A stretch of DNA of 64,000 nt, from contig CAVXXK010000001.1 in NCBI GenBank assembly GCA_963765675.1, positions 352,001 through 416,000 on the forward strand, given 5' to 3'. A program made the position numbers and the translations under genes. This document shows positions 38,334-53,582 of this stretch, piece after piece. Position 1 is the first letter of the stretch; each line of letters starts with the position of its first letter. The notes under the pieces are model-generated. The model was not told the DNA's origin. It did not search any database and saw only the letters and a program-made list of their open reading frames with translations. The DNA comes from an uncultured delta proteobacterium (GTDB lineage: Bacteria > Desulfobacterota > Binatia > Binatales > Binataceae).

Positions 38334-39242
38334 TTATGCGCGCGGATGCGAGCTCCGGTAAACCTTCTTGAGATGGTTTATGCTGACATGCGTGTAGCGC
38401 TGCGTGGTCGCGAGACTCGCGTGCCCGAGCATCTCCTGGATCGAGCGCAGGTCGGCGCCATTACCCAGCATATGCGTTGCGAACGAATGACGCAGCCCGT
38501 GCGGGGTCAGCGCGATCGGTACGCCCGCGCGGGTGATTCGATCGCGCACGATATTTTCGACGCTGCGGGTCGTCAGCCGCGCGCCGCGCAAGTTTACGAT
38601 CACGGGACCATCCGCCTCCCACGCGATCGGCATCACGCGCCGCCACGCGATTAGCGCGTCGAGCGCGGGATCTCCGATCGGCACCACGCGATCCTTGTTG
38701 CCTTTGCCCGAACGCACCGTCAGCATCCCGATTTCTTCGTCGATATCACGCCAGTTGAGGCCTACCAGCTCGCTCACGCGGATCCCGGTCGAGTAGAGCG
38801 TCTCGATTATCGCGCGATCGCGAAGCGCGGCGGCCGTATGCAGGTCGGCGTCGAGGTCGATCAATTTCCCTACGTCTTCCTGCCCCAGGACCAGAGGTAG
38901 ATGCCGCTCCGAGCGCGGCGAGCGCATCGTGCGCGTGGGGTTGTCGGCAGCGCCGGCGTTCTCGCGGTAGCGGAAAAACGCCTTGGCAGCGCTGAGCCGC
39001 CGCTGCACCGTCGCGCGCTGATATTTCTTTGTATTGATCATATTCGACAGCCATGCGCGAATGTGGTCGGCCGTGATCGACGCGGGATCGACTTCATCTT
39101 CCTTTCGCCCGAGCACCGCCGCGCGCTCGAGCATGAAGCTGCGCAGCGCCATCAGGTCGCGCCGGTAATTATCAACGGTATGCGCCGAGGCGCGTGCCGC
39201 GTGCGCGAGCGCGGCGGCAAACGCCTCGATCGCGTCCAGCAT
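38334..39242 (-). CDS. xerC: Tyrosine recombinase XerC
   Basis: [40 protein letters not shown]; directly upstream of hslV. Confidence 0.88.
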
Positions 39243-39344
39243 TGTCTCGCGCGCGGGTGCCACAGCGGCTATGCTATCAGTGGCGAAGTGCTTGAAAAAG
39301 CGCGGTTTTCCGGACCGGGGCCGGGACGCATCGCGGGGCGCGCG

Positions 39345-39620
39345 ATGAACTGTTTCTTCTGTGGCGGTGAAATCGAGGTTCGCGAGCGCGTGAGCTTTCG
39401 CGAGGTCTGTCCCGGATGCGGCCGTGCACAGCATGCGTGCCGAAACTGCGGATTTTACGATCCGGCGTACAATAATCAGTGCCGGGAGCCGATGGCGGAT
39501 CGGGTGGTCGATAAGGAACGCTCGAACTTTTGCGAGTACTTCACTCCGACGAAAAACCGCGCCGTCGCGAAACCGGTCTCGACGCGCAAAGCACTGGACG
39601 AGTTGTTCAAGAAGAAATGA
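39345..39620 (+). CDS. Small Cys-rich putative zinc-binding protein
   Basis: CFFC, CPGC, HACRNC, C, FCEYF; ends LDELFKK. Confidence 0.75.
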   Translation: MNCFFCGGEIEVRERVSFREVCPGCGRAQHACRNCGFYDPAYNNQCREPMADRVVDKERSNFCEYFTPTKNRAVAKPVSTRKALDELFKKK

Positions 39621-40051
39621 TGCCACGGTCACGAGCTAAGAATCGCCGCGCAGGGTTGGGCTCTTTGATGCTCGCGCTTGCGGTCGTCGTTCTCGCCGCA
39701 TCCTCCTGCACCAAGTTCAACAGCCCGCGCGGCGTGGTCGATCGCTTCATCACCGCGCACTACATGGCGATCGATCTGAAAGCCGCCGAGCCGCTATGCA
39801 CCGGGCTGGCGCTCGACAAGCTGCATCAGGAAATGAAACTGACCCAGGGTCAGGCGATCGACGAAACCACGCGCAAGCCTGTCATCCACTACAAGCTCAA
39901 GGCGGAGCGCGACGCTCCCGACCATATCCAGTATGTGTTCCTCGCGACGATCGACGTACCCGAAGGCGGCTCGTTCAAGAAGAATTGGATGATCTCCGCG
40001 CGCAAGGAAGGCGAGACCTGGAAGGTCTCCGACTTCAACGAGTACGACTAG
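39617..40051 (+). CDS. Putative lipoprotein (NTF2-like by pattern)
   Basis: Basic N-terminus, hydrophobic stretch, SS-C; SP..VV..F and W.V..F pattern; ATGA overlap with upstream gene. Confidence 0.6.
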   Translation: MMPRSRAKNRRAGLGSLMLALAVVVLAASSCTKFNSPRGVVDRFITAHYMAIDLKAAEPLCTGLALDKLHQEMKLTQGQAIDETTRKPVIHYKLKAERDAPDHIQYVFLATIDVPEGGSFKKNWMISARKEGETWKVSDFNEYD

Positions 40052-40067
40052 CGAGTACGACTAATCG

Positions 40068-41537
40068 ATGGCGCAAGATTCGCGCATAGGGAAAGGCGGC
40101 CTCGCCGCGATCGTGCTCGCTGCCGGACTCGGCACCCGGATGCGCTCGGCGCGGGCCAAGGTTCTGCACGAGATCGGCGGCAGCGCGATGGTCACGCGAG
40201 TCATCCGCGCGCTCGAGGCGGCGGGCGCCGCGCCGATCGTCGCCGTCGCCGGCTATCAGGCGCGCGACGTTGAGGCCGCTGTGCGCAATGCCGCCGCTAG
40301 TGCGCAGATTGCAATCGCGATTCAGGCCGAGCCGCGCGGCACCGGCGACGCCGCGCGCTCAGGCATTGGCGCGACTCCGCCGGACTACGCCGGTGACGTA
40401 CTGATCGCATACGGCGACATGCCGATGCTGACCGCGGCGACGCTTTCTGCGTTCATCCGTGCGCATTACGAAAGCGGCGCGGCGCTGTCGTTCATCAGCG
40501 TGGTCCTCGATAACGGCGGCGCGTACGGGCGAGTGCTCCGCGACGCTGACGGAGCGGCGCTCGCGATCGTTGAGGCGCGCGACGCGTCGCCGGCGGAACT
40601 CGCGGTCCGTGAAATCAACACCGGAATCTATATTGCACACGCAGGCTTTCTGCGCGCGGCGCTTGCCGGCCTCCAACCAAAGAACGCGCAGCATGAATTT
40701 TATCTGACCGATATTGTCGCGTCGGCGCGCAAGCGCGGACTCGCGGTCCAGGCGTGGCGGGCGCGGGACGCGGCGGAATTCGCGGGCGTGAACACGCGCG
40801 AGGAGTTGGCATCGATGGAAACCGTACTTCGTGACCAGGTGAACCGGCGGCTGATGGCGGCGGGAGTGACGTTCGTCGATCCCGCTTCGGCGTATATTTC
40901 CGACCAGGCGGAGATCGCCGCCGACGTGATCATCGGACCCAATGTGCAGATTCTCGGGCGATGCCGCGTTGGCGCGGAGACCAGAATCGAGGGCACCGCG
41001 TGGCTGAAGGACGTCGAGATCGGCGAGCGATGCCATATCAAGCTGGGCGTTCGCGCCGAGGAGTGCCGGATCGGCGCGGACTCGGAGATCGGACCATTCG
41101 CGAATCTGCGCGCTGGGACTGACCTCGAGGGGCACAATCGCATCGGCAATTTCGTCGAAACCAAAAAGGCAAAAATCGGACACGGCACCAAGGCCAGCCA
41201 TCTGAGTTACCTGGGCGACGTGACGATCGGCCGCGACACCAACGTCGGATGCGGCGTGATCACCGTCAACTATGACGGCTACGAAAAGCACGCCACCCAG
41301 ATCGGCGACCGCTGCATGATCGGATGCGACACCCAGCTAGTCGCGCCAATCAAGGTCGGCAACGACGCGTACGTCGCCTCGGGCACGACAATTATCCGCG
41401 AGGTTTCCGATGGCGCGCTGGTGATGTCGAATCATCCGCAACGCGAAAAACCCGGCTGGACCGCAACCTGGCGCAAACGCCACGGCGACAACGGCACTGG
41501 CTCGACGAGTCACGCATCCAAGCCCTCCGGCAAATGA
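40068..41537 (+). CDS. glmU: Bifunctional GlcN-1-P acetyltransferase/UDP-GlcNAc pyrophosphorylase
   Basis: LAAGLGTRMRS, GTGDA, YGR, EINTG, EFYLTD, GNFVE.K, HLSYLGD, NYDG. Confidence 0.97.
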   Translation: MAQDSRIGKGGLAAIVLAAGLGTRMRSARAKVLHEIGGSAMVTRVIRALEAAGAAPIVAVAGYQARDVEAAVRNAAASAQIAIAIQAEPRGTGDAARSGIGATPPDYAGDVLIAYGDMPMLTAATLSAFIRAHYESGAALSFISVVLDNGGAYGRVLRDADGAALAIVEARDASPAELAVREINTGIYIAHAGFLRAALAGLQPKNAQHEFYLTDIVASARKRGLAVQAWRARDAAEFAGVNTREELASMETVLRDQVNRRLMAAGVTFVDPASAYISDQAEIAADVIIGPNVQILGRCRVGAETRIEGTAWLKDVEIGERCHIKLGVRAEECRIGADSEIGPFANLRAGTDLEGHNRIGNFVETKKAKIGHGTKASHLSYLGDVTIGRDTNVGCGVITVNYDGYEKHATQIGDRCMIGCDTQLVAPIKVGNDAYVASGTTIIREVSDGALVMSNHPQREKPGWTATWRKRHGDNGTGSTSHASKPSGK

Positions 41538-41564: not shown

Positions 41565-42443
41565 GTGCGGCAGATTTCTCGCCGAAAGCTGCTGATCGCC
41601 TCGTTGCTCGCCGGGCCGGCTCTGTTGAGTTTTCGGGCTGCTGCCGATGATCAGGACGCAGAGTTGCGACGCAGAGTTGCCGATCTCGAACGGAGGCACG
41701 GTGGCCGGCTTGGCGTCGCGGTTCTCGATACCGCGAGGATGAAGCTGATCGCACATCGTGGTGACGAGCGCTTTCCCATGTGCAGCACGTCCAAGTTTCC
41801 AACCGCCGCATTCGTCATGGCGCGGGTTGATCACAAGCAGGAGAGCCTGGGCCGCCGGATCGTCTATTCGAAGGATTACCTGGTTCCGTATTCCCCGGTC
41901 ACCGAGAAGCACGTCGGCGGCGACGGACTGACCGTCGGCGAAATCTGCGGAGCGGCACTGACCCTCAGCGACAACACGGCAGAGAACCTGCTCCTGGACA
42001 CCTTCGGCGGGCCGGCGGCATTGACGGCCTACCTCCGCTCGCTTGGAGACAGGGTCACTCGGCTCGACCGGCGTGAACCGGAGCTGAACACAGCCATCCC
42101 CGGCGATCCGCGCGACACCACTACTCCGATCGCGATGCTGGAAATCCTGCACAAGATCATCCTCGGTACCGCGCTATCGGCCTCCTCTCGCGAGCAACTG
42201 ACCGCGTGGATCGTCGCAAGTAAGACCGGCGACAAGCGCTTGCGCGCAGGCATGCCAAAAGGTTGGCGCGTCGGAGACAAGACCGGCTCCGGGCCGAACA
42301 ATGTAACGAACGACATCGCCGTCGCATGGCCGCCAGCGCGCGCACCAATAATCGTGACGGCCTACTATGCTGGCGCTCGCGCATCGGATGACGAGCGGAA
42401 TGCGATCCTGGCAGAGGTCGGCCAACTCGCGCTGACGGTTTGA
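41565..42443 (+). CDS. bla: Class A beta-lactamase with twin-arginine-like signal
   Basis: ERFPMCSTSK (S70xxK), SDN, DRREPELN (E166/N170), RDTTTP, DKTGSG; N-terminal SRRKLL. Confidence 0.92.
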   Translation: MRQISRRKLLIASLLAGPALLSFRAAADDQDAELRRRVADLERRHGGRLGVAVLDTARMKLIAHRGDERFPMCSTSKFPTAAFVMARVDHKQESLGRRIVYSKDYLVPYSPVTEKHVGGDGLTVGEICGAALTLSDNTAENLLLDTFGGPAALTAYLRSLGDRVTRLDRREPELNTAIPGDPRDTTTPIAMLEILHKIILGTALSASSREQLTAWIVASKTGDKRLRAGMPKGWRVGDKTGSGPNNVTNDIAVAWPPARAPIIVTAYYAGARASDDERNAILAEVGQLALTV

Positions 42444-42516
42444 GGCCATCTGTCACTCGGCGAGTTCTCGGCGCTCCTTGGATATAGTCCATCCAACGCC
42501 ACCCAAAATGCCGCGC

Positions 42517-42545
42517 TTGTACCATCCTGCGCGGGCGGGGATAAT
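42517..42545 (+). promoter_or_regulatory. Putative sigma70 promoter for the ribozyme-glmS transcript
   Basis: TTGTAC-17 bp-GATAAT about 75 bp upstream of the ribozyme. Confidence 0.55.
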
Positions 42546-42619
42546 CTTTGGTAAGGGAAACGAAGCCCGAATTTCTATCGAGGTGATGGTCGAGCTGATT
42601 CAACGCATAGGACGAGAGT

Positions 42620-42766
42620 AGCGCCAGGACTCGGATTGTATTCGCAATCCGAGTTGACGAGGTGGAAGCTTCATCGAAAGATTCGGCGGATGGCTTCCCG
42701 GTTCCACGGCCGAAAAAGGCGAACAAACCACGCGGGTGACCGCGTGACAAAAGCCGCCTTGAGTGG
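42620..42766 (+). ncRNA. glmS riboswitch-ribozyme (GlcN6P-activated self-cleaving RNA)
   Basis: A/GCGCCAGGACT cleavage site; P1 actcggattg/caatccgagt; TTGACGAGG; P2 ggaagc/gcttcc around ATCGAAAGATTCGGCGGAT; P3 cggtt/ggccg; P4 aaggcg/cgcctt with ACAAA bulges and a cacgcgg-GTGA-ccgcgtg hairpin; P3.1 ccac/gtgg; 5' of glmS. Confidence 0.93.
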
Positions 42767-42937
42767 CAGGGCAAGATGCCCTGACGAAGATTAAACTCTC
42801 CCGCTTTGATCATCCCCTTCGATTCCGGATCGCACGGACGCGACGAGCGCGGCTCGTGGCTCTCGTGATTCCCGAAACTGCCGCGCAAAAGTGCGGCGCA
42901 ACGCTATCTCTGCAACTGATGCGGAGGGGGAATCATT

Positions 42938-44771
42938 ATGTGTGGAATCATCGGATACGTCGGAGCGGATGAGGCCTATCCCATCCTGATTGAAGGGTTG
43001 GCTCGCCTCGAATACCGCGGCTACGACTCGGCCGGCGTCGCGACAATCGTGCAGAACGGCAAGCTCGAGATTCGCCGCGCGGCCGGCAAGCTGGCCAATC
43101 TGCGCACGCGTCTCGCCGACGCTCCGCTTGGCGGCCGGATCGGAATCGGACACACGCGCTGGGCCACCCACGGCCGCCCGTCCGAGGAGAATGCACATCC
43201 GCACAAGGCCGGCCCGGTCGCAGTGATTCACAACGGAATCGTCGAGAACTATCTTGAGCTGCGCGCCGCGCTGCTCGCGCGCGGCCATCAGCTTCGCTCG
43301 CAAACCGACACCGAGCTGATTTCTCATCTGATCGAGGAACGGATCAAGGCGGGACTCGGGCTGACTGAGGCGGTCAGACGCTCGGTCGGCGATCTGCGCG
43401 GCTCATTCTCGATCGTGGTCTTGTCGGAGACCGAGCCCGGCAAGCTGGTCGCGGCGAAGACCGCGACTCCGCTGGTTCTTGGACTTGGCGAGGGCGAGAA
43501 TTTCGTCGCGTCCGATATTCCCGCGATCCTGAACCACACGCGCAGGGCGATCGTGCTCGACGACGGCGAGCTGGCGGAAATCACCGCGCATAGTGTTCGA
43601 ATCATGAAGTTCGACGGCACGCCCGTCACGCGGACGCCGCGCCATATCGAATGGGACGCCGTCGCCGCAACCAAGGGCGGTTTCAAACACTACCTGCGCA
43701 AGGAGATAAGCGAGCAGCCGCAAGCATGGATCGACACGCTGGCCGATCGCGCGATCGCTGGATCATCAGAGGTCCGCTTCGACGAGGAGCTTCTGCCCGC
43801 CGGCGGCCCCGGACTCGATCGGGCGAATCGTGATGGTGAGCGAAGGGGCGTCGTGGATCACGGCGAATATCGGGAAATACATGATCGAGGAGCTGACCGG
43901 AATTCCGGTCGAGGCCGACTTCGCCTCGGAGTTCCGCTACCGCCGCGCGCCGATAGATTCGCGCACCATGATGATCGCGATCTCTCAGTCGGGCGAGACT
44001 GCCGACACTCTGGCCGCGATGGAGGAAGGCATCCGGCGTGGCGCGCACGTGATCGCGCTGACTAATACTCTCGATTCGTCGATCGCGCGGCGCGCGCACG
44101 CGCGGCTGTACACGCGATGCGGTCTCGAGATCAGCGTGACTACGACCAAGTGCTTCATCACCCAGGTCGAGGCTTTCTATCTGTTCGCGATTCATCTCGC
44201 TGCCCGGATGGGGCGCCTTAACGCCGCCGAGGCCGAGGCGCTGCTGGCACCGGCGTTCGCGATTCCCGCGCAGATGAAAGCGATCTTCGCGCTCGAGCCC
44301 GAGATCGAGCGGATCGCGCGCACCTACGCGTCCGCGCGCGATTTCATCTATATCGGCCGCGGGATCAATCATCCGGTCGCGCTCGAAGGCGCGCTCAAGC
44401 TGAAGGAGATCTCTTACATCCACGCCGAGGGCTTTCCCGCGGGTTTCATGAAGCACGGCCCGATCGCGCTGATCGACGAGTCGGTTCCGGTCGTGGTGCT
44501 GATTCCCAACGATGACCTGTTCGACAAGATGCTCTCGAACCTGCGCGAGGTTGAATCGCGCGGCGGAAAGATTATCGCCGTGACCGACCGCGCCACCGAC
44601 GAGCTGCGCTCAGTCGCAACCGAGGTACTCGAGCTTCCGGCGACCAACCGGATGCTCACGCCGGTGCTGATGACTATTCCGCTGCAACTGCTCGCCTACC
44701 ATGTGGCGGCGGAGCGCGGCACCGATATCGACCAGCCGCGCAACCTCGCGAAATCGGTGACGGTCGAGTAG
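42938..44771 (+). CDS. glmS: Glutamine-fructose-6-phosphate aminotransferase (one +1 frameshift near 43808; divergent isomerase motifs)
   Basis: MCGIIG, LEYRGYDSAG, HTRWATHG, SQSGETADT, LKLKEISY, PRNLAKSVTVE; an extra C in the cccc run at 43807-43810 joins the two ORFs. Confidence 0.93.
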
Positions 44772-44846: not shown

Positions 44847-46146
44847 TTACGGCGCCGCGGCGACCATCGCCTTTACCGTGCAGAAGTCCTTGTCCACCGC
44901 GCCCATGTTGATGTACCAGCATTCGCGCTCGGGCGTGTTCTGGCCGGGCAGATAGCACATCGTCGAGATTCCGCCCTCCATGTCGACTCGGCTGGCGCCG
45001 ACTACGAACTCGCGCTTGAACGGATAGATCGCCACGCGAGCGTCCGGCACCGGCCGGTCGCGATAGGCCAGCCAATAGATATTCGAGCGCCAGAGTTGAC
45101 CCTGTCGATCGTAGGTATCGACCAAGGGATCAAACCACACTTCGCTGTCGATGTAGATGATCGAGTTCTTGTCCAGCGCGCCGCCCGCCTGGCCAAGATC
45201 GCGGCGCGGGGTCGCGTTGATGACGTAGACGTGGCGCATCTCCCAATCTTCCGGGCACGCCGAGGCGCCACCGTCGGTCGGGCAGGTGACCTCCGGAGAA
45301 TGCTTGGCATGCACGCTCATCAGCATCTCCTTGTCGCCCAGGAATTTGTAGTCATAGAACTCGGTCTTGGCGTTGAAGCCGGAATAGTGATCCGGATCAA
45401 ACTGCTGCGTCCCGGTCGCCGAGCTCAGGATCGCCTCGTTCAACCGGCGCACGCGCCGGGTGCCGGGGTTCCAGTCCCACGAGTCGTCGCCGCGCTTGGG
45501 ATCCATGTACCGATAACGGATTAGTCCCTCTCCGTACGCATCCGCCGGCGCGAGAATCGGATACAGCGCAAACAGCCACATCCGGCCCGTGATCTTGAAG
45601 TCCGGGTCCGTCGGCAGCGGCTCGACCTCGGTGCGTCCGACCAGCGAATAGCCCGCGTAATGGCCGACCCAGATGTCGTTGATGATATGCTGGGACTGGC
45701 CGGGGCGTACGTACTGAATCTGGCAATCGTAGAAGCGCAGATCGTAGTCGTCGGTCTGAATCGGACGGAACACGTTATTCCACATCACCTTGTTGGCGAC
45801 GTAAGGATCGTTCGAATCGATCAGCGGAAACGGCTGTCCCGCGACGTATCCGATGAGCGAACGATGGTCGCTGGTCAGGCGCACCTGCGCGGAATACTTT
45901 TCGGTCGCGTCCTTGTACGGCGGCGGCCAATCGATCCGCTGAGTCGGCACGATGTCCATCTGCATCCCGTGCGTGACCATGTAATAAACGCCGGGGCCGA
46001 CGACATCCTTGACCTGTGTCGCGTTCTGCGGGGTGATTACATCCCCCGGTTTGACTGTGGCTGACGCGAGCGGACGTAGCCGCGAAGACCGCGAGGATCG
46101 CGACCGCGCCAGCGAGCGAGACTCTGGCTAACACCCGCTTGAGCAT
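44847..46146 (-). CDS. DUF1329-type exported protein, copy 1 (frameshift near 46060-46100)
   Basis: Signal MLKRVLARV in one frame, body (VKPG.VIT, YVAGQPFP, PGTRRVRRL, YDRQGQLWR) in another; near-identical to copy 2. Confidence 0.75.
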
Positions 46147-46387: not shown

Positions 46388-47686
46388 TCACGGCGCCGCG
46401 GAAACCATCGCCTTCACCGTGCAGAAGTCTTTATCGACCGCGCCCATATTGATGTACCAGCACTCGCGCTCCGGCGTGTTCTGGCCGGGCAAATAGCACA
46501 TCGTCGAGATTCCGCCCTCCATGTCCACCCGATCGGCGCCCACCACGAATTCGCGCTTGAACGGATAGATCGCCACGCGCGCGTCTGGCACCGGCCGGTC
46601 CCGATACGCCAGCCAGTAGATATTCGAGCGCCAGAGCTGTCCCTGCCGATCGTAGGTATCAACCATCGGGTCGAACCAGACTTCGCTGTCGATGTAGATG
46701 ATGGATTCCTTGTCCAACGCTCCGCCTGCTGCGCCCAGGTCGCGCCGCGGCGTCGCCTGGACCACGTACACGTGACGCATCTCCCAGTCTTCCGGACACG
46801 CCGACGCGCCGCCGTCAGTCGGACAAGTGACCTCGGGAGAATGCTTCGCGTGCACGCTCATCAGCATCTCCTTGTCGCCCAGAAATTTGTAGTCATAGAA
46901 CTCCGTCTTGGCGTTGAACCCAGAGTAGTGATCCGGATCGAACTGCTGCGTTCCGGTCGCCGAGCTCAGGATCGATTCGTTGAGCCGGCGCACGCGACGG
47001 GTTCCCGGAGTCCAGGTCCACGAGTCGTCGCCACGCTTGGGATCCTCGTAGCGGTAGCGAATCAGGCCGGTGCCATAAGCGTCCGCCGGAGCGAGAATCG
47101 GATATAAAGCGAACAGCCACATCCGGTTAGTGATCTTGAAGTCAGGATCAGTCGGCATCGGTTCGACCTCGGTACGTCCAACCTCCGAATAACCTGCGTA
47201 GTGCCCCACCCAGATCTCGTTGATGATGTTATGCGACTTGCCGGGGCGGATGTACTGAATCTGGCAGTCGAAGAAGCGCAGGTCATAGTCGTCGCTCTGG
47301 ATCGGACGGAACACGTTGTTCCACATCACCTTGCTCGCGACGAAAGGATCGTTCGCGTCGATGAGCGGAAATGGCTGCCCGGCCACGTATCCGATGAGCG
47401 ATCGATGGTCGGTGGTCAGGCGGACCTGCGATGAGTACTTCTCGGTCGCGTCTTTGTACGGTGGCGGCCAATCGATCCGTTGGGTCGGTACGATATCCAT
47501 CTGCATCCCGTGCGTGACCATGTAATAGACACCGGGAGTGACGACATCCTTGACCGATGTGGCGTTGGCGGGAGTGATTACTTCTCCCGGTTTCACAGCC
47601 GCCTGGGAGCATAGCGATCCGGCGACGATGAGAAACATCGCTAACGCTCCAGTAAGAATACCTCTGGTCAGCACCCGGTTGAGCAT
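46388..47686 (-). CDS. DUF1329-type exported protein, copy 2
   Basis: Signal peptide, G.PFP, RRVRR, YD..GQLWR motifs; GGAGG RBS. Confidence 0.78.
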   Translation of the reverse strand: MLNRVLTRGILTGALAMFLIVAGSLCSQAAVKPGEVITPANATSVKDVVTPGVYYMVTHGMQMDIVPTQRIDWPPPYKDATEKYSSQVRLTTDHRSLIGYVAGQPFPLIDANDPFVASKVMWNNVFRPIQSDDYDLRFFDCQIQYIRPGKSHNIINEIWVGHYAGYSEVGRTEVEPMPTDPDFKITNRMWLFALYPILAPADAYGTGLIRYRYEDPKRGDDSWTWTPGTRRVRRLNESILSSATGTQQFDPDHYSGFNAKTEFYDYKFLGDKEMLMSVHAKHSPEVTCPTDGGASACPEDWEMRHVYVVQATPRRDLGAAGGALDKESIIYIDSEVWFDPMVDTYDRQGQLWRSNIYWLAYRDRPVPDARVAIYPFKREFVVGADRVDMEGGISTMCYLPGQNTPERECWYINMGAVDKDFCTVKAMVSAAP

Positions 47687-47821
47687 CCGAGAAACCTCCA
47701 TAAGACAAAGTATCTGTTTAGATTAGTGTTGATCTATTGAGCCGTAATTGCTTCCGAAAAAATCTAATGCTCGGATTAGCGCAGGTTGTCCTCGCCGCAG
47801 CTGTTGCGTTGTTTTGCGCTC

Positions 47822-47893: not shown

Positions 47894-49192
47894 TCACGGA
47901 GCCGCCGCGACCATCGCCTTCACCGTGCAGAAATCCTTGGACACCGCACCCATGTTGATATACCAGCATTCGCGCTCCGGCGTATGCTGTCCCGGCAGAT
48001 AACACATCGTCGAGACGTTGCCCTGCACGTCGATCGACGCCGCTCCCACCACGAACTCGCGCTTGAACGGATAGACCGCCACGCGCGCGTCCGGCACCGG
48101 CCGATCGCGATAGGTCAGCCAGTAGATGTGCGCGCGCCACAGCTGCCCCTTCTGGTCGTAGGTGTCGATGTACGGCTCGAACCACGCTTCGGCGTCGAGG
48201 TAGATCACCGTGTCGCGATCCAGCGCGGTTGGCGCACCCTTGCGGTCGCGGCGAGGGATCGCGTCGACGATATACATCCGCCGCATCTCCCAGTCCTCCG
48301 GGCATGCCGTCCCGCCGCCGTCATAGGGGCAGGTCATTTCGGGCGAGTGTGCCGCATGAACGCTGGCCAGCAGCTCGCGCTGCCCGAGGAACCGGTAGGT
48401 GTACTGTTCGGTCTTCGGGTTGAAGCCGGAATAGTGATCCGGGTCATAGGTCTGCGTGCCGGTCGCCGAGCTCATCATCGCTTCGTTGAGACGGCGCACG
48501 CGGCGCGTTCCAGGCTGCCAATCCCAACTGTCGTCGCCCTTGTCGGGATCGGCATAGCGCCACCGGATGAGCCCCTGCCCGCGCGACTCTTCCGGCGAAA
48601 GAATCGGATAGAGCGCGAACAGCCACATCCGCCCCGTGGTCCGGTAGTCCGGATCGATCGGGAGCGGATCAACTTCCGTGCGCCCGACCAGATCGTAACC
48701 GGCGTAGTGCCCGATCTCGATATCGTCGATAATCCGCTGCTCCTGTCCCGGCTTGATGTACTCGGTCTGGCAATCATAGAAGCGCAGATCGTAGTCGTCG
48801 GTCGAGATTGGGCGAAACACGTTGTTCCACACGAGCTTGATCGCGATGTCGGGATCATTCGCGTCGATCAACGGAAACGGCTGCCCTGCCACGTAACCGA
48901 CCACCGTGCGATGGTCTTCGCTGAGCCGCACCTGGCCCGAGTATTTCTCGGTCGCCTCGCGGTATGGCGGCGGCCATTCGATCACGTCCGGCGCGACGAT
49001 ATTCATGCGCATCCCGTGCGTGACGGCGTAATAAACGCCGGGCGATACGAGCTGCCTGACCTGAGTTGCGTTTTGCGCCCCGATCACTTCCCCCGGCTTC
49101 ACCGCGGCCCGTGCCCCCGCCGACGCAATCATCAGTGAAGCGAGACAGGATGCGACCGTACAAAGCGTCTGTCCCCATCTACGCTTTAACAT
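47894..49192 (-). CDS. DUF1329-type exported protein, copy 3
   Basis: Same motifs and C-terminus (FCTVKAMVAAAP); more diverged than copies 1 and 2. Confidence 0.78.
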   Translation of the reverse strand: MLKRRWGQTLCTVASCLASLMIASAGARAAVKPGEVIGAQNATQVRQLVSPGVYYAVTHGMRMNIVAPDVIEWPPPYREATEKYSGQVRLSEDHRTVVGYVAGQPFPLIDANDPDIAIKLVWNNVFRPISTDDYDLRFYDCQTEYIKPGQEQRIIDDIEIGHYAGYDLVGRTEVDPLPIDPDYRTTGRMWLFALYPILSPEESRGQGLIRWRYADPDKGDDSWDWQPGTRRVRRLNEAMMSSATGTQTYDPDHYSGFNPKTEQYTYRFLGQRELLASVHAAHSPEMTCPYDGGGTACPEDWEMRRMYIVDAIPRRDRKGAPTALDRDTVIYLDAEAWFEPYIDTYDQKGQLWRAHIYWLTYRDRPVPDARVAVYPFKREFVVGAASIDVQGNVSTMCYLPGQHTPERECWYINMGAVSKDFCTVKAMVAAAP

Positions 49193-51421: not shown

Positions 51422-53569
51422 CTATTCATACCGGAGCGCGTCGATTGGATGGAGCAGCGAGGCTTTGCGGGCTGGGTAGTAGCCGAAGAAGACGCCGACT
51501 GCCGCCGCGAAGATGAAGCCGCCGGCGATCGACGTGGGGGATACCAGCGTCGGCCATCCTGCCAGCGCTGAAATCAGTTTCGACGCCACGATCCCAAGGA
51601 TCGCGCCCGCGATTCCGCCGAGCGCGCTCAGCAGCACCGCTTCGACCAAAAATTGCAGCAGGATATGTATCCGCCGCGCGCCGATCGCCATCCGGATTCC
51701 GATCTCGCGCGTGCGCTCGGTCACCGAAACCAGCATGATATTCATGATTCCGATTCCGCCGACCAGCAGCGAAATCGACGCGACCGCGGCCAGCAGGATC
51801 GTCATCACGCCGCTCTGCTTTTCCGACGCCTGCGCGATTTCATTCAGGCTGCGCACCGTGAAATCGTCATCCTGGCCGGGCTGGATATGATGATGCCGAT
51901 GCAGCGATTTGCGTGATCTCGCTCATCGCTGCATCGACCTCGGCCGCGCTCTTGGCCTGCACATAGATCAGGTTGACGACCCCGGTGATTTTCGGCGGCG
52001 CTCCGAATGGGCTGACCTCGGCGGTGGCGAGCTGTAGATCGAATTGGCGGTCGGCAGGCCGTGTAAGGATTCTCGACCGTCGGGGTGGCGGTGGCGACCG
52101 CGACCGAAGTAGAGGGCGCCGACACTCCAAGCACTTTGCGCTCCGCAGTCTCGAACGGGATCAGCACGATATCGTCCTGATCCTGCCCCCATTGCGACTG
52201 GCCTTTGACCGAGAGCACGCCGATTACCCGCAGCGGAAAATTCTTGACCCGCACCATCGCCCCGACCGGATTTTGCTGTTCGCCAAAAAGATTGTTCGAC
52301 CACCGTCTGGCCGAGCAGCAGACCGGTGCGGCGGTCTGGTCGTCCTCATCGGTCATCGCGCGGCCCGAGGTCACCGGCCATTCACGGATATTCTGATATT
52401 CGGCGGTGATTCCTTCGATACTGGTACTCCAGTTCGGTTTCCGTTGACGATCTGCGCGATTTGCCGGTCCATATAGCTTACGCGTGAGGATCGCGCGCAC
52501 TTCCTTGCGGATCGCGAGCGCGTCGTCCGGTCGTTGAGGGTCGAAGTCGAGCCGAAGCCGCGCGCGGACGCCGTTGGAAGTCGTCGCGCCGGGCAGTACC
52601 ACGATCAAATTGGTGCCGAGGCTCTGGAGTTGCGCCTGCACCGAGGCGCGCGCCCCGTCTCCGACCGCGACCATCGCGATCACCGCCGCCACACCAATAA
52701 AGATGCCGAGCATCGTCAGCGCCGCGCGCATCTTGTTGCGGCGCAGCGCACGTGGCCGCCGCAGATCACCGCCATCGCGGCAAAGGTCAGCGCCTCATCG
52801 GCGGAAGAGGTGATGTTGCCGGGTGTCGTCCACGTGCGAGCGCCGGGCGCGGCTGTCCCGATGATCGGCATGCGGCGCGCCGGGTTTGCGCACGTCCGAG
52901 ACTACCTGCCCGTCGCGAAAGCTTATCGTGCGATCTGCGTATGCGCCGACATCGGGATCGTGCGTCACCAGGATTATCGTGATGCCCTGCTCGCGGTTGA
53001 GCCGCGTGATGATCTCCATGATTTCGGTGGAGCTGGTCGAATCGAGGTTTCCAGTCGGCTCGTCGGCCAGCACGATCGACGGCTGATTGATTAGCGCCCG
53101 CGCGATCGCGACCCGTTGCTGTTGTCCGCCCGAGAGCTGGTTGGGATGGTTCTGCGCGCGCCCGGTCAGCCCCACCAGCTTGAGCAGTTCTTCGGCGCGA
53201 TGCTCCCTGTGATGGTTCCATGCGGAATAGAACAGCGGCAGTTCGACGTTTTCGAGCGCACTGGTGCGTGCGAGCAGGTTGAAGCTCTGAAACACGAATC
53301 CGATTCTGCCGGCTCCGGATCGCCGCGAGATCTTCTTCGGCCAGGGCGGCCACGTCCTCACCTTCGAGCAGGTAGCGCCCTCGCGTGGGCCGATCCAGGC
53401 ATCCGAGGATATTCATCAGGGTCGATTTCCCCGACCCCGACGCACCCATCACCGCCACGAACTCGCCCCGATCGATAGTAAGCGACACTCCGCGCAGTGC
53501 GTTAACCTCGACCTCGCCCAGCACGTAGGTTTTCCAGAGATCAACCAATTCGATGACTGGCATCGTCAT
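51422..53569 (-). CDS. macB: MacB-like ABC exporter, probably fused ATPase plus permease, broken by several frameshifts
   Basis: [75 protein letters not shown] spread over at least five ORF fragments. Confidence 0.75.
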
Positions 53570-53582
53570 TGTTCCTGCGAGA

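Follow-up and report, generated by a model that had tools for sequence, protein, structure and literature searches.

Introduction

Among known natural ribozymes, only the glmS ribozyme has a metabolite as its cofactor. It is of interest as a target for antibiotics, and almost all work on it concerns Firmicutes, although members of the class are known from several diderm phyla as well. The canonical members (Rfam family RF00234), such as those of Bacillus subtilis, B. anthracis and Thermoanaerobacter tengcongensis, lie in the 5ʹ untranslated region (UTR) of glmS and share an A↓GCGCC cleavage site (the arrow marks the cut), a GACGAGG core motif, helices P1 to P4.1 and the P3.1 pseudoknot. Here we describe a glmS ribozyme in a 64 kb stretch of DNA (positions 352,001 to 416,000 of contig CAVXXK010000001.1; hereafter "the window") from a member of the Binataceae, a widespread uncultured soil lineage. 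This RNA has the same motifs, helices and place before glmS as the canonical examples, and RNase J is present in its host, as it is in B. subtilis. It differs from them in that the host is not a Firmicute, and in the addition of a hairpin, P5, and of a closing helix, P0, one strand of which precedes the cut. For the Firmicutes ribozymes studied, one base 5ʹ of the cut suffices, and the 5ʹ strand is thought to be dispensable.

Several other systems invite comparison. Deinococcus-Thermus glmS variants, which McCown and colleagues are said to have described in 2011, reportedly have extra stems, either inside the core or as longer outer hairpins. They resemble the Binataceae RNA in combining a canonical core with lineage-specific helices, but in the Binataceae the added helix lies outside the domain, which it closes, and takes in the 5ʹ cleavage flank. 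The closing helices of other self-cleaving ribozymes also include the strand 5ʹ of the cut. In engineered ribozyme switches, cleavage alters access to the ribosome-binding site, usually freeing it. Enterobacteria use the same feedback logic as the glmS ribozyme, with glucosamine-6-phosphate acting on glmS at the mRNA level through GlmY, GlmZ and RapZ (PMC4152352), but they do so with trans-acting small RNAs and RNase E.

The accepted mechanism of the glmS ribozyme, as outlined in PMC10810187 and PMC5473149, is cleavage followed by decay by RNase J1. A 2025 preprint (PMC12667848) sought glmS expression platforms among terminators 30–100 nt after the aptamer; its passages on this search report no covarying overlap and do not consider the 5ʹ flank. 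Our own literature search found no paper naming "glmS ribozyme" with "Deltaproteobacteria", and a search on glmS, riboswitch and Binatota returned no "Binatota" among the top-ranked papers. Among papers pairing "glmS ribozyme" with "anti-Shine-Dalgarno", none was, by title or abstract, about a glmS expression platform. An earlier note on this DNA, made from its letters alone (hereafter "the preliminary description"), had made novelty depend on whether the ribozyme was already catalogued in this lineage. We found no literature report, but any Rfam scan finds this RNA. P0 may have an earlier mention in print, for instance in the papers of McCown and colleagues from 2011 and 2012 on glmS distribution and consensus.

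Results

A glmS ribozyme with a canonical core

The preliminary description proposed that a complete ribozyme with compensatory pairing precedes glmS. The covariance-model search that it suggested bears this out. RF00234 matches positions 42609–42771 of the forward strand (on which all features below lie unless stated otherwise) over the full length of the model (1–167 of 167), scoring 92.9 bits (gathering threshold, 37 bits; E = 2.9e-20). This is the sole Rfam match inside the window. A search of the whole genome (4.52 Mb) returned the same match as the single copy of the glmS ribozyme, and this copy directly precedes the genome's sole true glmS. As a control, the RF00234 search also returned matches in Deinococcus.

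For comparative analysis we drew Binataceae-type ribozymes from metagenomes with a core-only pattern that excludes both P0 strands. The pattern gave 95 stretches, 80 of which were taken with flanks, and 90 distinct sequences were aligned. The RF00234 match, RNAalifold, pair counts and the minimum-energy fold together define the structure of 42609–42771. RNAalifold recovered P1 (42629–42636/42647–42654), P2 (42664–42669/42693–42698), P2a (42674–42677/42683–42686), P3 (42699–42703/42708–42712), P4 (42716–42720/42756–42760) and P4.1 (42730–42735/42740–42745). Two-sided changes occur in 18 of the 39 RNAalifold pairs, and P1, P3, P4 and P4.1 are all represented among them. The P3.1 pseudoknot, in which the P3 loop (CCAC, 42704–42707) pairs with the 3ʹ tail (GUGG, 42763–42766), is paired in 98.9% of cells, with one of its four pairs changed on both sides. 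The positions of A↓GCGCC and of the core motif GACGAGG (42656–42662) are mostly invariant and the remainder are at least 90% conserved. The letters of the core pseudoknots, which we take to be P2.1 and P2.2 as defined in the crystal-structure papers, never vary in the alignment. On this comparative evidence, the leader of glmS holds a genuine glmS ribozyme with a canonical core.

The position in the Rfam alignment predicts self-cleavage between A42620 and G42621 of A↓GCGCC (G42621–C42625). The preliminary description placed the cut between the same two bases, in agreement with the position of the motif. From membership of the family, we infer that cleavage here is ligand-dependent.

A hairpin and a closing helix outside the core

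Two elements were added to the canonical core. The first, P5, is a hairpin directly after P3.1 (42767–42772/42778–42783). Pair counts show 85–87% of cells paired, with four of six pairs changed on both sides. The second, P0, joins the flank 5ʹ of the cut to the region beyond the ribozyme. Its 5ʹ strand is GAGAGU (42614–42619), directly before the base 5ʹ of the cut, together with GG (42610–42611) across a 2-nt bulge. Its 3ʹ strand is ACUCUC (42795–42800) with CC (42801–42802), in a near-invariant block, AAACUCUCCCGC, about 25 nt 3ʹ of the ribozyme. ACUCUC is the exact complement of GAGAGU. The preliminary description suggested that the long spacer between ribozyme and gene may have a different role in this lineage. 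This stands in part: the first 30 nt hold the covarying P5 and the 3ʹ strand of P0, and the spacer is not inert.

P0 is supported by the alignment and by folding. GAGAGU and ACUCUC occur together in 79 of the 90 sequences. Two variants are compensatory, namely AAGAGU/ACUCUU (L218) and GAAAGU/ACUUUC (L219), and both of the corresponding G-U intermediates were found (L201 and L145); a single mismatch occurs in L169. Overall, 96.6% of P0 cells are paired and three pairs are changed on both sides, a result reached by 0–1 of 500 shuffles. Every slid register falls to 20–65% paired. These pair counts supersede a longest-helix scan allowing G-U pairs, which was confounded by a nearby GAUUUUC. Furthermore, the unconstrained minimum-energy fold of 42608–42806 contains P0, extended by pairs between G42610–G42611 and C42801–C42802.

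Some observations tell against the helix. Within the Binataceae, compensatory change has occurred just twice. The flank motif is missing from five of the 90 sequences (L130, L178, L180, L184 and L190), and two more (L138 and L210) are mis-anchored. RNAalifold does not include P0, and pairs ACUCUC with GAGGU of the core (42659–42663) instead. Indeed, the letters of the 3ʹ strand can also pair either with this part of the core or with the ribosome-binding region, and each of these pairings suggests an alternative role for the strand.

According to the first of these alternatives, ACUCUC pairs mainly with the catalytic-core GAGGU, giving an inactive fold that delays or gates cleavage, and GAGAGU is a decoy that frees the core. 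RNAalifold chose this pairing on the 90 sequences, and it can be formed in 99.3% of cells. However, it has no two-sided changes; the core is invariant, such that the pairing is indistinguishable from chance complementarity. It also leaves the joint change of flank and element in L218 and L219 unexplained, and it does not match the Chloroflexota helices described below, such as CCAUGACG/CGUCAUGG, whose letters do not fit the core. We therefore consider a gating role of this kind very improbable.

P0 in the ribozymes of Chloroflexota

The closest GlmS proteins outside the Binatia are those of Chloroflexota (46–52% identity). Upstream of GlmS relatives in metagenome-assembled genomes (MAGs) of Anaerolineae and Chloroflexia, an nhmmer profile identified 18 ribozymes. 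Ten of these reach the Rfam threshold, with 37.1–49.5 bits; they have long insertions, and the matches span 184–301 nt. At 92.9 bits, the Binataceae ribozyme is much closer to the Rfam consensus. Hence, these Chloroflexota are not obvious donors of the Binataceae RNA.

In these RNAs too, the flank forms a helix with bases shortly after the end of the ribozyme, and the letters are unlike those of the Binataceae. The two strands are GGGGAAGA/UCUUCCCC in L059, GAGGAAAGA/UCUUUCCUC in both L068 and L070, AGGGAAAGA/UCUUUCCCU in L089, GGGAAAGGA/UCCUUUCCC in L090, GGGGAGAA/UUCUCCCC in L063 and, as given above, CCAUGACG/CGUCAUGG in L086. The helix is 8–9 bp long and is set 1–3 nt back from the cut, and its 5ʹ strand is mostly purine-rich. 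We compared how strongly a flank pairs with the downstream region of its own sequence and with those of other sequences, using a set of 25 (17 of the 18 Chloroflexota ribozymes, L098 being dropped because its cut site could not be placed, and eight from the Binataceae). The mean was −12.7 kcal/mol for own pairs and −10.6 kcal/mol for swapped pairs, and none of 20,000 permutations reached the value for own pairs (p ~5e-5). Four of the 17 Chloroflexota flanks (L064, L074, L079 and L082) have no specific partner, ranking 16–21 of 24, which counts against P0 as a general feature of these RNAs. Nonetheless, since the Chloroflexota form the same helix in other letters, the case for P0 is settled beyond the two events in the Binataceae. 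We conclude from these comparisons that a flank-to-tail helix, P0, is common to the ribozymes of the Binataceae and Chloroflexota; this is the new point of our analysis. Viral contigs, searched for Firmicutes-type ribozymes by means of a generic core pattern, yielded none, and P0 is known here from Binataceae and Chloroflexota alone.

What is the role of P0?

The second alternative pairing of the 3ʹ strand, that with the ribosome-binding region, would make P0 a cleavage-operated translational switch. The purine-rich flank would mimic a ribosome-binding site and mask an anti-Shine-Dalgarno element, ACUCUCCCGC. The cut would detach the mask, the element would pair with the real ribosome-binding site (GCGGAGGGGG, 42921–42930), and translation would stop with or without RNase J; the freed ACUCUCCC would lower translation. 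In this respect the model differs from engineered ribozyme switches, which usually free the binding site on cleavage, whereas here it would be hidden.

Several features fit such a switch. The two pairings use overlapping letters and are mutually exclusive. A majority of the flanks in the 17 Chloroflexota sequences are rich in purines (e.g. GGGGAAG) and look like Shine-Dalgarno sequences. When all windows of a leader are ranked by their pairing with the ribosome-binding region of that leader, the P0 3ʹ strand falls within the top 10% in 16 of 17 cases from the Binataceae and in 12 of 17 from the Chloroflexota, and in the window the predicted pairing of element and ribosome-binding site reaches −14.0 kcal/mol. 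However, the rank test is weak, because ribosome-binding sites, being rich in G and A, will pair with any strand rich in C and U, and composition alone could suffice. There is no specific covariation between element and site: across 63 sequences the mean is −11.62 kcal/mol for own pairs and −11.53 kcal/mol for swapped ones (p = 0.34), and p rises to 0.73 with one representative per element type (35 representatives). The matching pairs of element and Shine-Dalgarno sequence that were first picked out are, hence, anecdotes. The flanks of L086 and L097 are unlike a ribosome-binding site, and in L035 and L037 the element is 357 and 429 nt from the start codon.

Predicted accessibility speaks against the switch in a similar way. 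In folds that ignore pseudoknots and kinetics, the ribosome-binding site is more accessible before the cut in just 16 of 34 leaders (Wilcoxon p = 0.65), and scrambling the flank makes no difference (p = 0.93). In the window, the Shine-Dalgarno sequence (GGAGGGGG, 42923–42930) is overlapped by a local hairpin that is conserved within the genus (CUCUGCA, 42908–42914, with UGCGGAG, 42920–42926). Because of this hairpin, the predicted unpaired probability of the site is low whether or not the 5ʹ fragment is present (0.04 and 0.12). Taken together, these points make a switch acting through P0 unlikely. Our default reading of P0 is structural: most likely, the helix both closes the domain of the ribozyme and insulates it, and keeps hold of the bases that precede the cut.

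Promoter, leader and spacer

The preliminary description assigned the ribozyme its own putative σ70 promoter. The element consists of a −35 sequence, TTGTAC (42518–42523), and a −10 sequence, GATAAT (42540–42545), separated by 17 nt. A consensus promoter scanner does not list it, with eight of 12 positions matching the consensus. However, an alignment of 13 leaders representing six genera shows TTG and ATAAT at constant spacing in almost every one, and for this reason we regard the element as a likely promoter. Transcription would start near 42552, giving a 5ʹ leader, which is also the 5ʹ cleavage fragment, of ~69 nt (42552–42620).

Within this leader, GAGG (42580–42583), ~40 nt 5ʹ of the cut, is invariant in the 13 leaders amid variable surroundings. 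An 11-codon upstream open reading frame (ORF), running from ATG at 42586 to TAG at 42619–42621 across the cut, was considered and rejected, an early TAG being present in L105, L106 and L107.

The spacer from the end of the RF00234 match (42771) to the ATG of glmS (42938) is 166 nt, close to the 170 nt given previously. In the sample from this genus and other genera, an open glmS frame lies 3ʹ of the ribozyme at 15 of 16 loci, for 12 of which the spacing was determined. The spacer is much longer in two Binataceae MAGs, ~390–460 nt as compared with the 166 nt of the window (L035, 2078–2609; L037, 1956–2564). These long spacers contain repeated blocks resembling CAGGATGACAG, and retain P0 and P5.

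Distribution and origin of the ribozyme in the Binatia

The survey of related genomes proposed in the preliminary description shows that the ribozyme is common in the Binataceae. In a first sample, it was found in 10 of 10 other genomes of the same genus, in five of 14 other genera and in none of 16 genomes from ten other Binatia families. A wider draw, which takes in the unpublished genomes G010, G108 and G157, found it in 68 of 151 Binataceae genomes, representing 12 of 30 genera. Within the Binataceae, its presence is nearly all-or-none by genus: 32 of 33 genomes in g45, 9 of 10 in g43, 5 of 6 in g36 and 3 of 3 in g14 are carriers, and 0 of 17 in g42, 0 of 13 in g15, 0 of 7 in g8 and 0 of 7 in g33. 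The glmS leaders of eight ribozyme-negative Binataceae genera and of six genomes from other families gave no glmS ribozyme match at E values up to 1. Hence, the negative genera do not represent missed variants.

GlmS itself is the same orthologue throughout, with 70–98% identity within the Binataceae and 50–61% identity to the other Binatia families. In a FastTree phylogeny of 91 GlmS proteins, the Binatia form one group (a starred value of 100), inside which a long stem leads to the Binataceae. No ribozyme occurs in the other families or in the basal Binataceae; carriers are concentrated in one starred clade, where they make up 17 of 19 rows, and a further carrier, L027, sits at an unresolved fork. 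Since glmS was inherited vertically, and since the other families and basal Binataceae lack the ribozyme, the ribozyme leader was probably gained within the Binataceae, in front of the resident gene. The simplest history has either a single gain and then one to three losses, or two separate gains. With a FastTree built from a single protein and rooted by the other families as outgroup, and with the fork at L027, both histories are possible, a weakness in our account of the origin.

Horizontal transfer of glmS from Chloroflexota was considered and rejected, because the other Binatia families are closer (50–61% identity) and because GlmS of the Binatia forms one group.

RNase J and the route of decay

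The preliminary description raised the possibility that decay downstream of cleavage differs in this lineage, and suggested a search of the genome for RNase J. This search found an orthologue, with a TIGR00649 score of 450.7 bits (cut-off, 400 bits), at G000:C6:158320–159948. TIGR00649 is above the cut-off in 39 of 41 Binatia genomes, whether or not they carry the ribozyme. The two exceptions are G013, which has no match, and G022, in which the gene is split. The case of G013 counts against RNase J as the partner of the ribozyme, since this genome is 93% complete and carries the ribozyme. Nonetheless, with RNase J present in the genome studied here, a different decay route need not be invoked, and the earlier suggestion is not upheld. 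We regard a Bacillus-type mechanism as the best guess, the involvement of RNase J being inferred from the presence of its gene. The occurrence of RNase J in Binatia with and without the ribozyme suggests that the ribozyme entered a lineage already having RNase J.

A broken frame in glmS

The gene downstream of the ribozyme, glmS (42938–44771; glutamine–fructose-6-phosphate aminotransferase, from ORFs and Pfam), is split between two frames. The first ORF (42938–44065) encodes the glutamine amidotransferase domain (GATase_6/7) and the second (43830–44771) encodes two SIS domains. The frame of 42938–43813 resumes in that of 43830–44771, owing to one extra base at ~43813. At this position the window reads CCCGGACTCGATCGG, where all 12 aligned relatives have CCCGG-CGCGATCGG or a similar sequence; the extra base is also missing from five of five relatives in a second comparison.

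Is the frameshift real? If so, the locus could be decaying in this strain, with glmS a pseudogene, the ribozyme a relic and amino sugars coming from outside. The frame is indeed broken in the record, the extra base is not within a homopolymer run, and the genome has no second true glmS. However, the break aside, the ribozyme, the promoter and the two parts of GlmS are undamaged and are 96–98% identical to close relatives. Moreover, a MacB-type ABC transporter gene less than 10 kb away (ABC_tran and MacB_PCD; 51918–53578, reverse strand) is divided among three frames, the breaks falling near 53308 and 52029, which places at least two further frame breaks within 21 kb. This gene is whole in relatives (open frames of 557–840 aa; a 557-aa query was mapped to the window). 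The 20 kb around glmS contain 14 private clusters of frame-breaking indels, as compared with one each in two many-contig relatives; two few-contig relatives have six each. Because private indel clusters are frequent here, a nearby transporter gene is also broken and no relative shares the frameshift, we think that it is most likely an assembly error rather than a pseudogene or a programmed shift, and that decay of the locus is unlikely.

Contigs from four sequencing runs provide no support for this interpretation, and to that extent count against it, since none that spans 43813 is near-identical to the window. The only contig that spans the position (X1 record 6) is ~91% identical and lacks the extra base, and hence comes from a relative. 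X3 record 17 matches 42514–42986 with two differences in 473, and is possibly not independent of the source sample. Among the sequencing runs listed for this stretch, none was of RNA.

Other features of the gene and of the assembly were noted. All Binataceae GlmS proteins have G-A-S (e.g. VSEGASW) in the first SIS domain, at 43830–43860 in the window, in a phosphate-binding loop where E. coli GlmS presumably has C-G-T-S. Judged by its conservation across the lineage, this difference is not a sign of decay. The other candidate for a glmS in this genome is only a SIS-domain paralogue (L003, G000:C1:1879546–1880436), which lies in an open frame of 457 aa and is 27% identical to the isomerase half of GlmS. 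A dense run of +/−1 indels lies at 52027–52767. In the relative G022, glmS and the RNase J gene are each in two pieces, and this looks like another indel-prone assembly.

Host genome and neighbouring genes

The genome is assembled in 16 contigs (4.52 Mb; 95.6% completeness, 4.3% contamination). The closest public GlmS proteins (94–98% identity) are from MAGs labelled Candidatus Binataceae or "uncultured delta proteobacterium". Upstream of the ribozyme are a GlmU-like gene, encoding a nucleotidyl transferase with hexapeptide repeats (40068–41537), and a class A beta-lactamase-family gene (41565–42443; Pfam Beta-lactamase2, 155.6 bits). The latter lies between the GlmU-like gene and ribozyme-glmS on the same strand, placing a wall-related enzyme amid wall-precursor genes. 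A tyrosine integrase gene of the phage integrase family (38334–39632, reverse strand) is 430 nt upstream of the GlmU-like gene. Downstream, three tandem DUF1329/LolA-like paralogues lie on the reverse strand (44847–45980, 46388–47701 and 47894–49192); many further copies, with 65–77% DNA identity, are scattered in the genomes of relatives. Judged by their Pfam assignments, the DUF1329/LolA-like genes and the nearby MacB-type transporter would fit a diderm envelope, and, together with the NCBI label "delta proteobacterium", they agree with the diderm, Deltaproteobacteria-like host supposed in the preliminary description.

Discussion

We propose the following sequence of events at this locus. 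Transcription would begin near 42552, from the conserved promoter. With glucosamine-6-phosphate plentiful, the RNA would cut itself between A42620 and G42621, as its family membership implies. The downstream piece, with its 5ʹ-hydroxyl end, would be degraded by the resident RNase J as in B. subtilis, resulting in less GlmS. In the folded RNA, P5 would follow P3.1, and P0 would close the whole ribozyme domain from outside. P0 most likely aids or insulates folding and keeps the bases before the cut from moving away. The ribozyme itself would have been gained in the Binataceae, before a vertically inherited glmS, in a lineage that had RNase J already. Taken as a whole, we find it reasonably likely that the locus has a canonical-core ribozyme, decay by RNase J, closing elements P0 and P5, a gain within the Binataceae, and a frameshift that is an error of assembly. 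The broken frame of glmS is thus a caution on the assembly and does not bear on the biology.

What is the significance of these observations? P0 bears on the design of minimal constructs for these lineages, and on release of the 5ʹ product, because the helix involves the strand 5ʹ of the scissile bond and recurs in two phyla with different letters. Should the unlikely translational switch be true, coupling of cleavage to translation would give the glmS ribozyme another output, one that does not depend on RNase J, and the switch would be the first natural expression platform for the class, common to Chloroflexota and Binataceae. The locus itself extends the glmS ribozyme class to the Binataceae, and provides a clean case of an RNA switch spreading.

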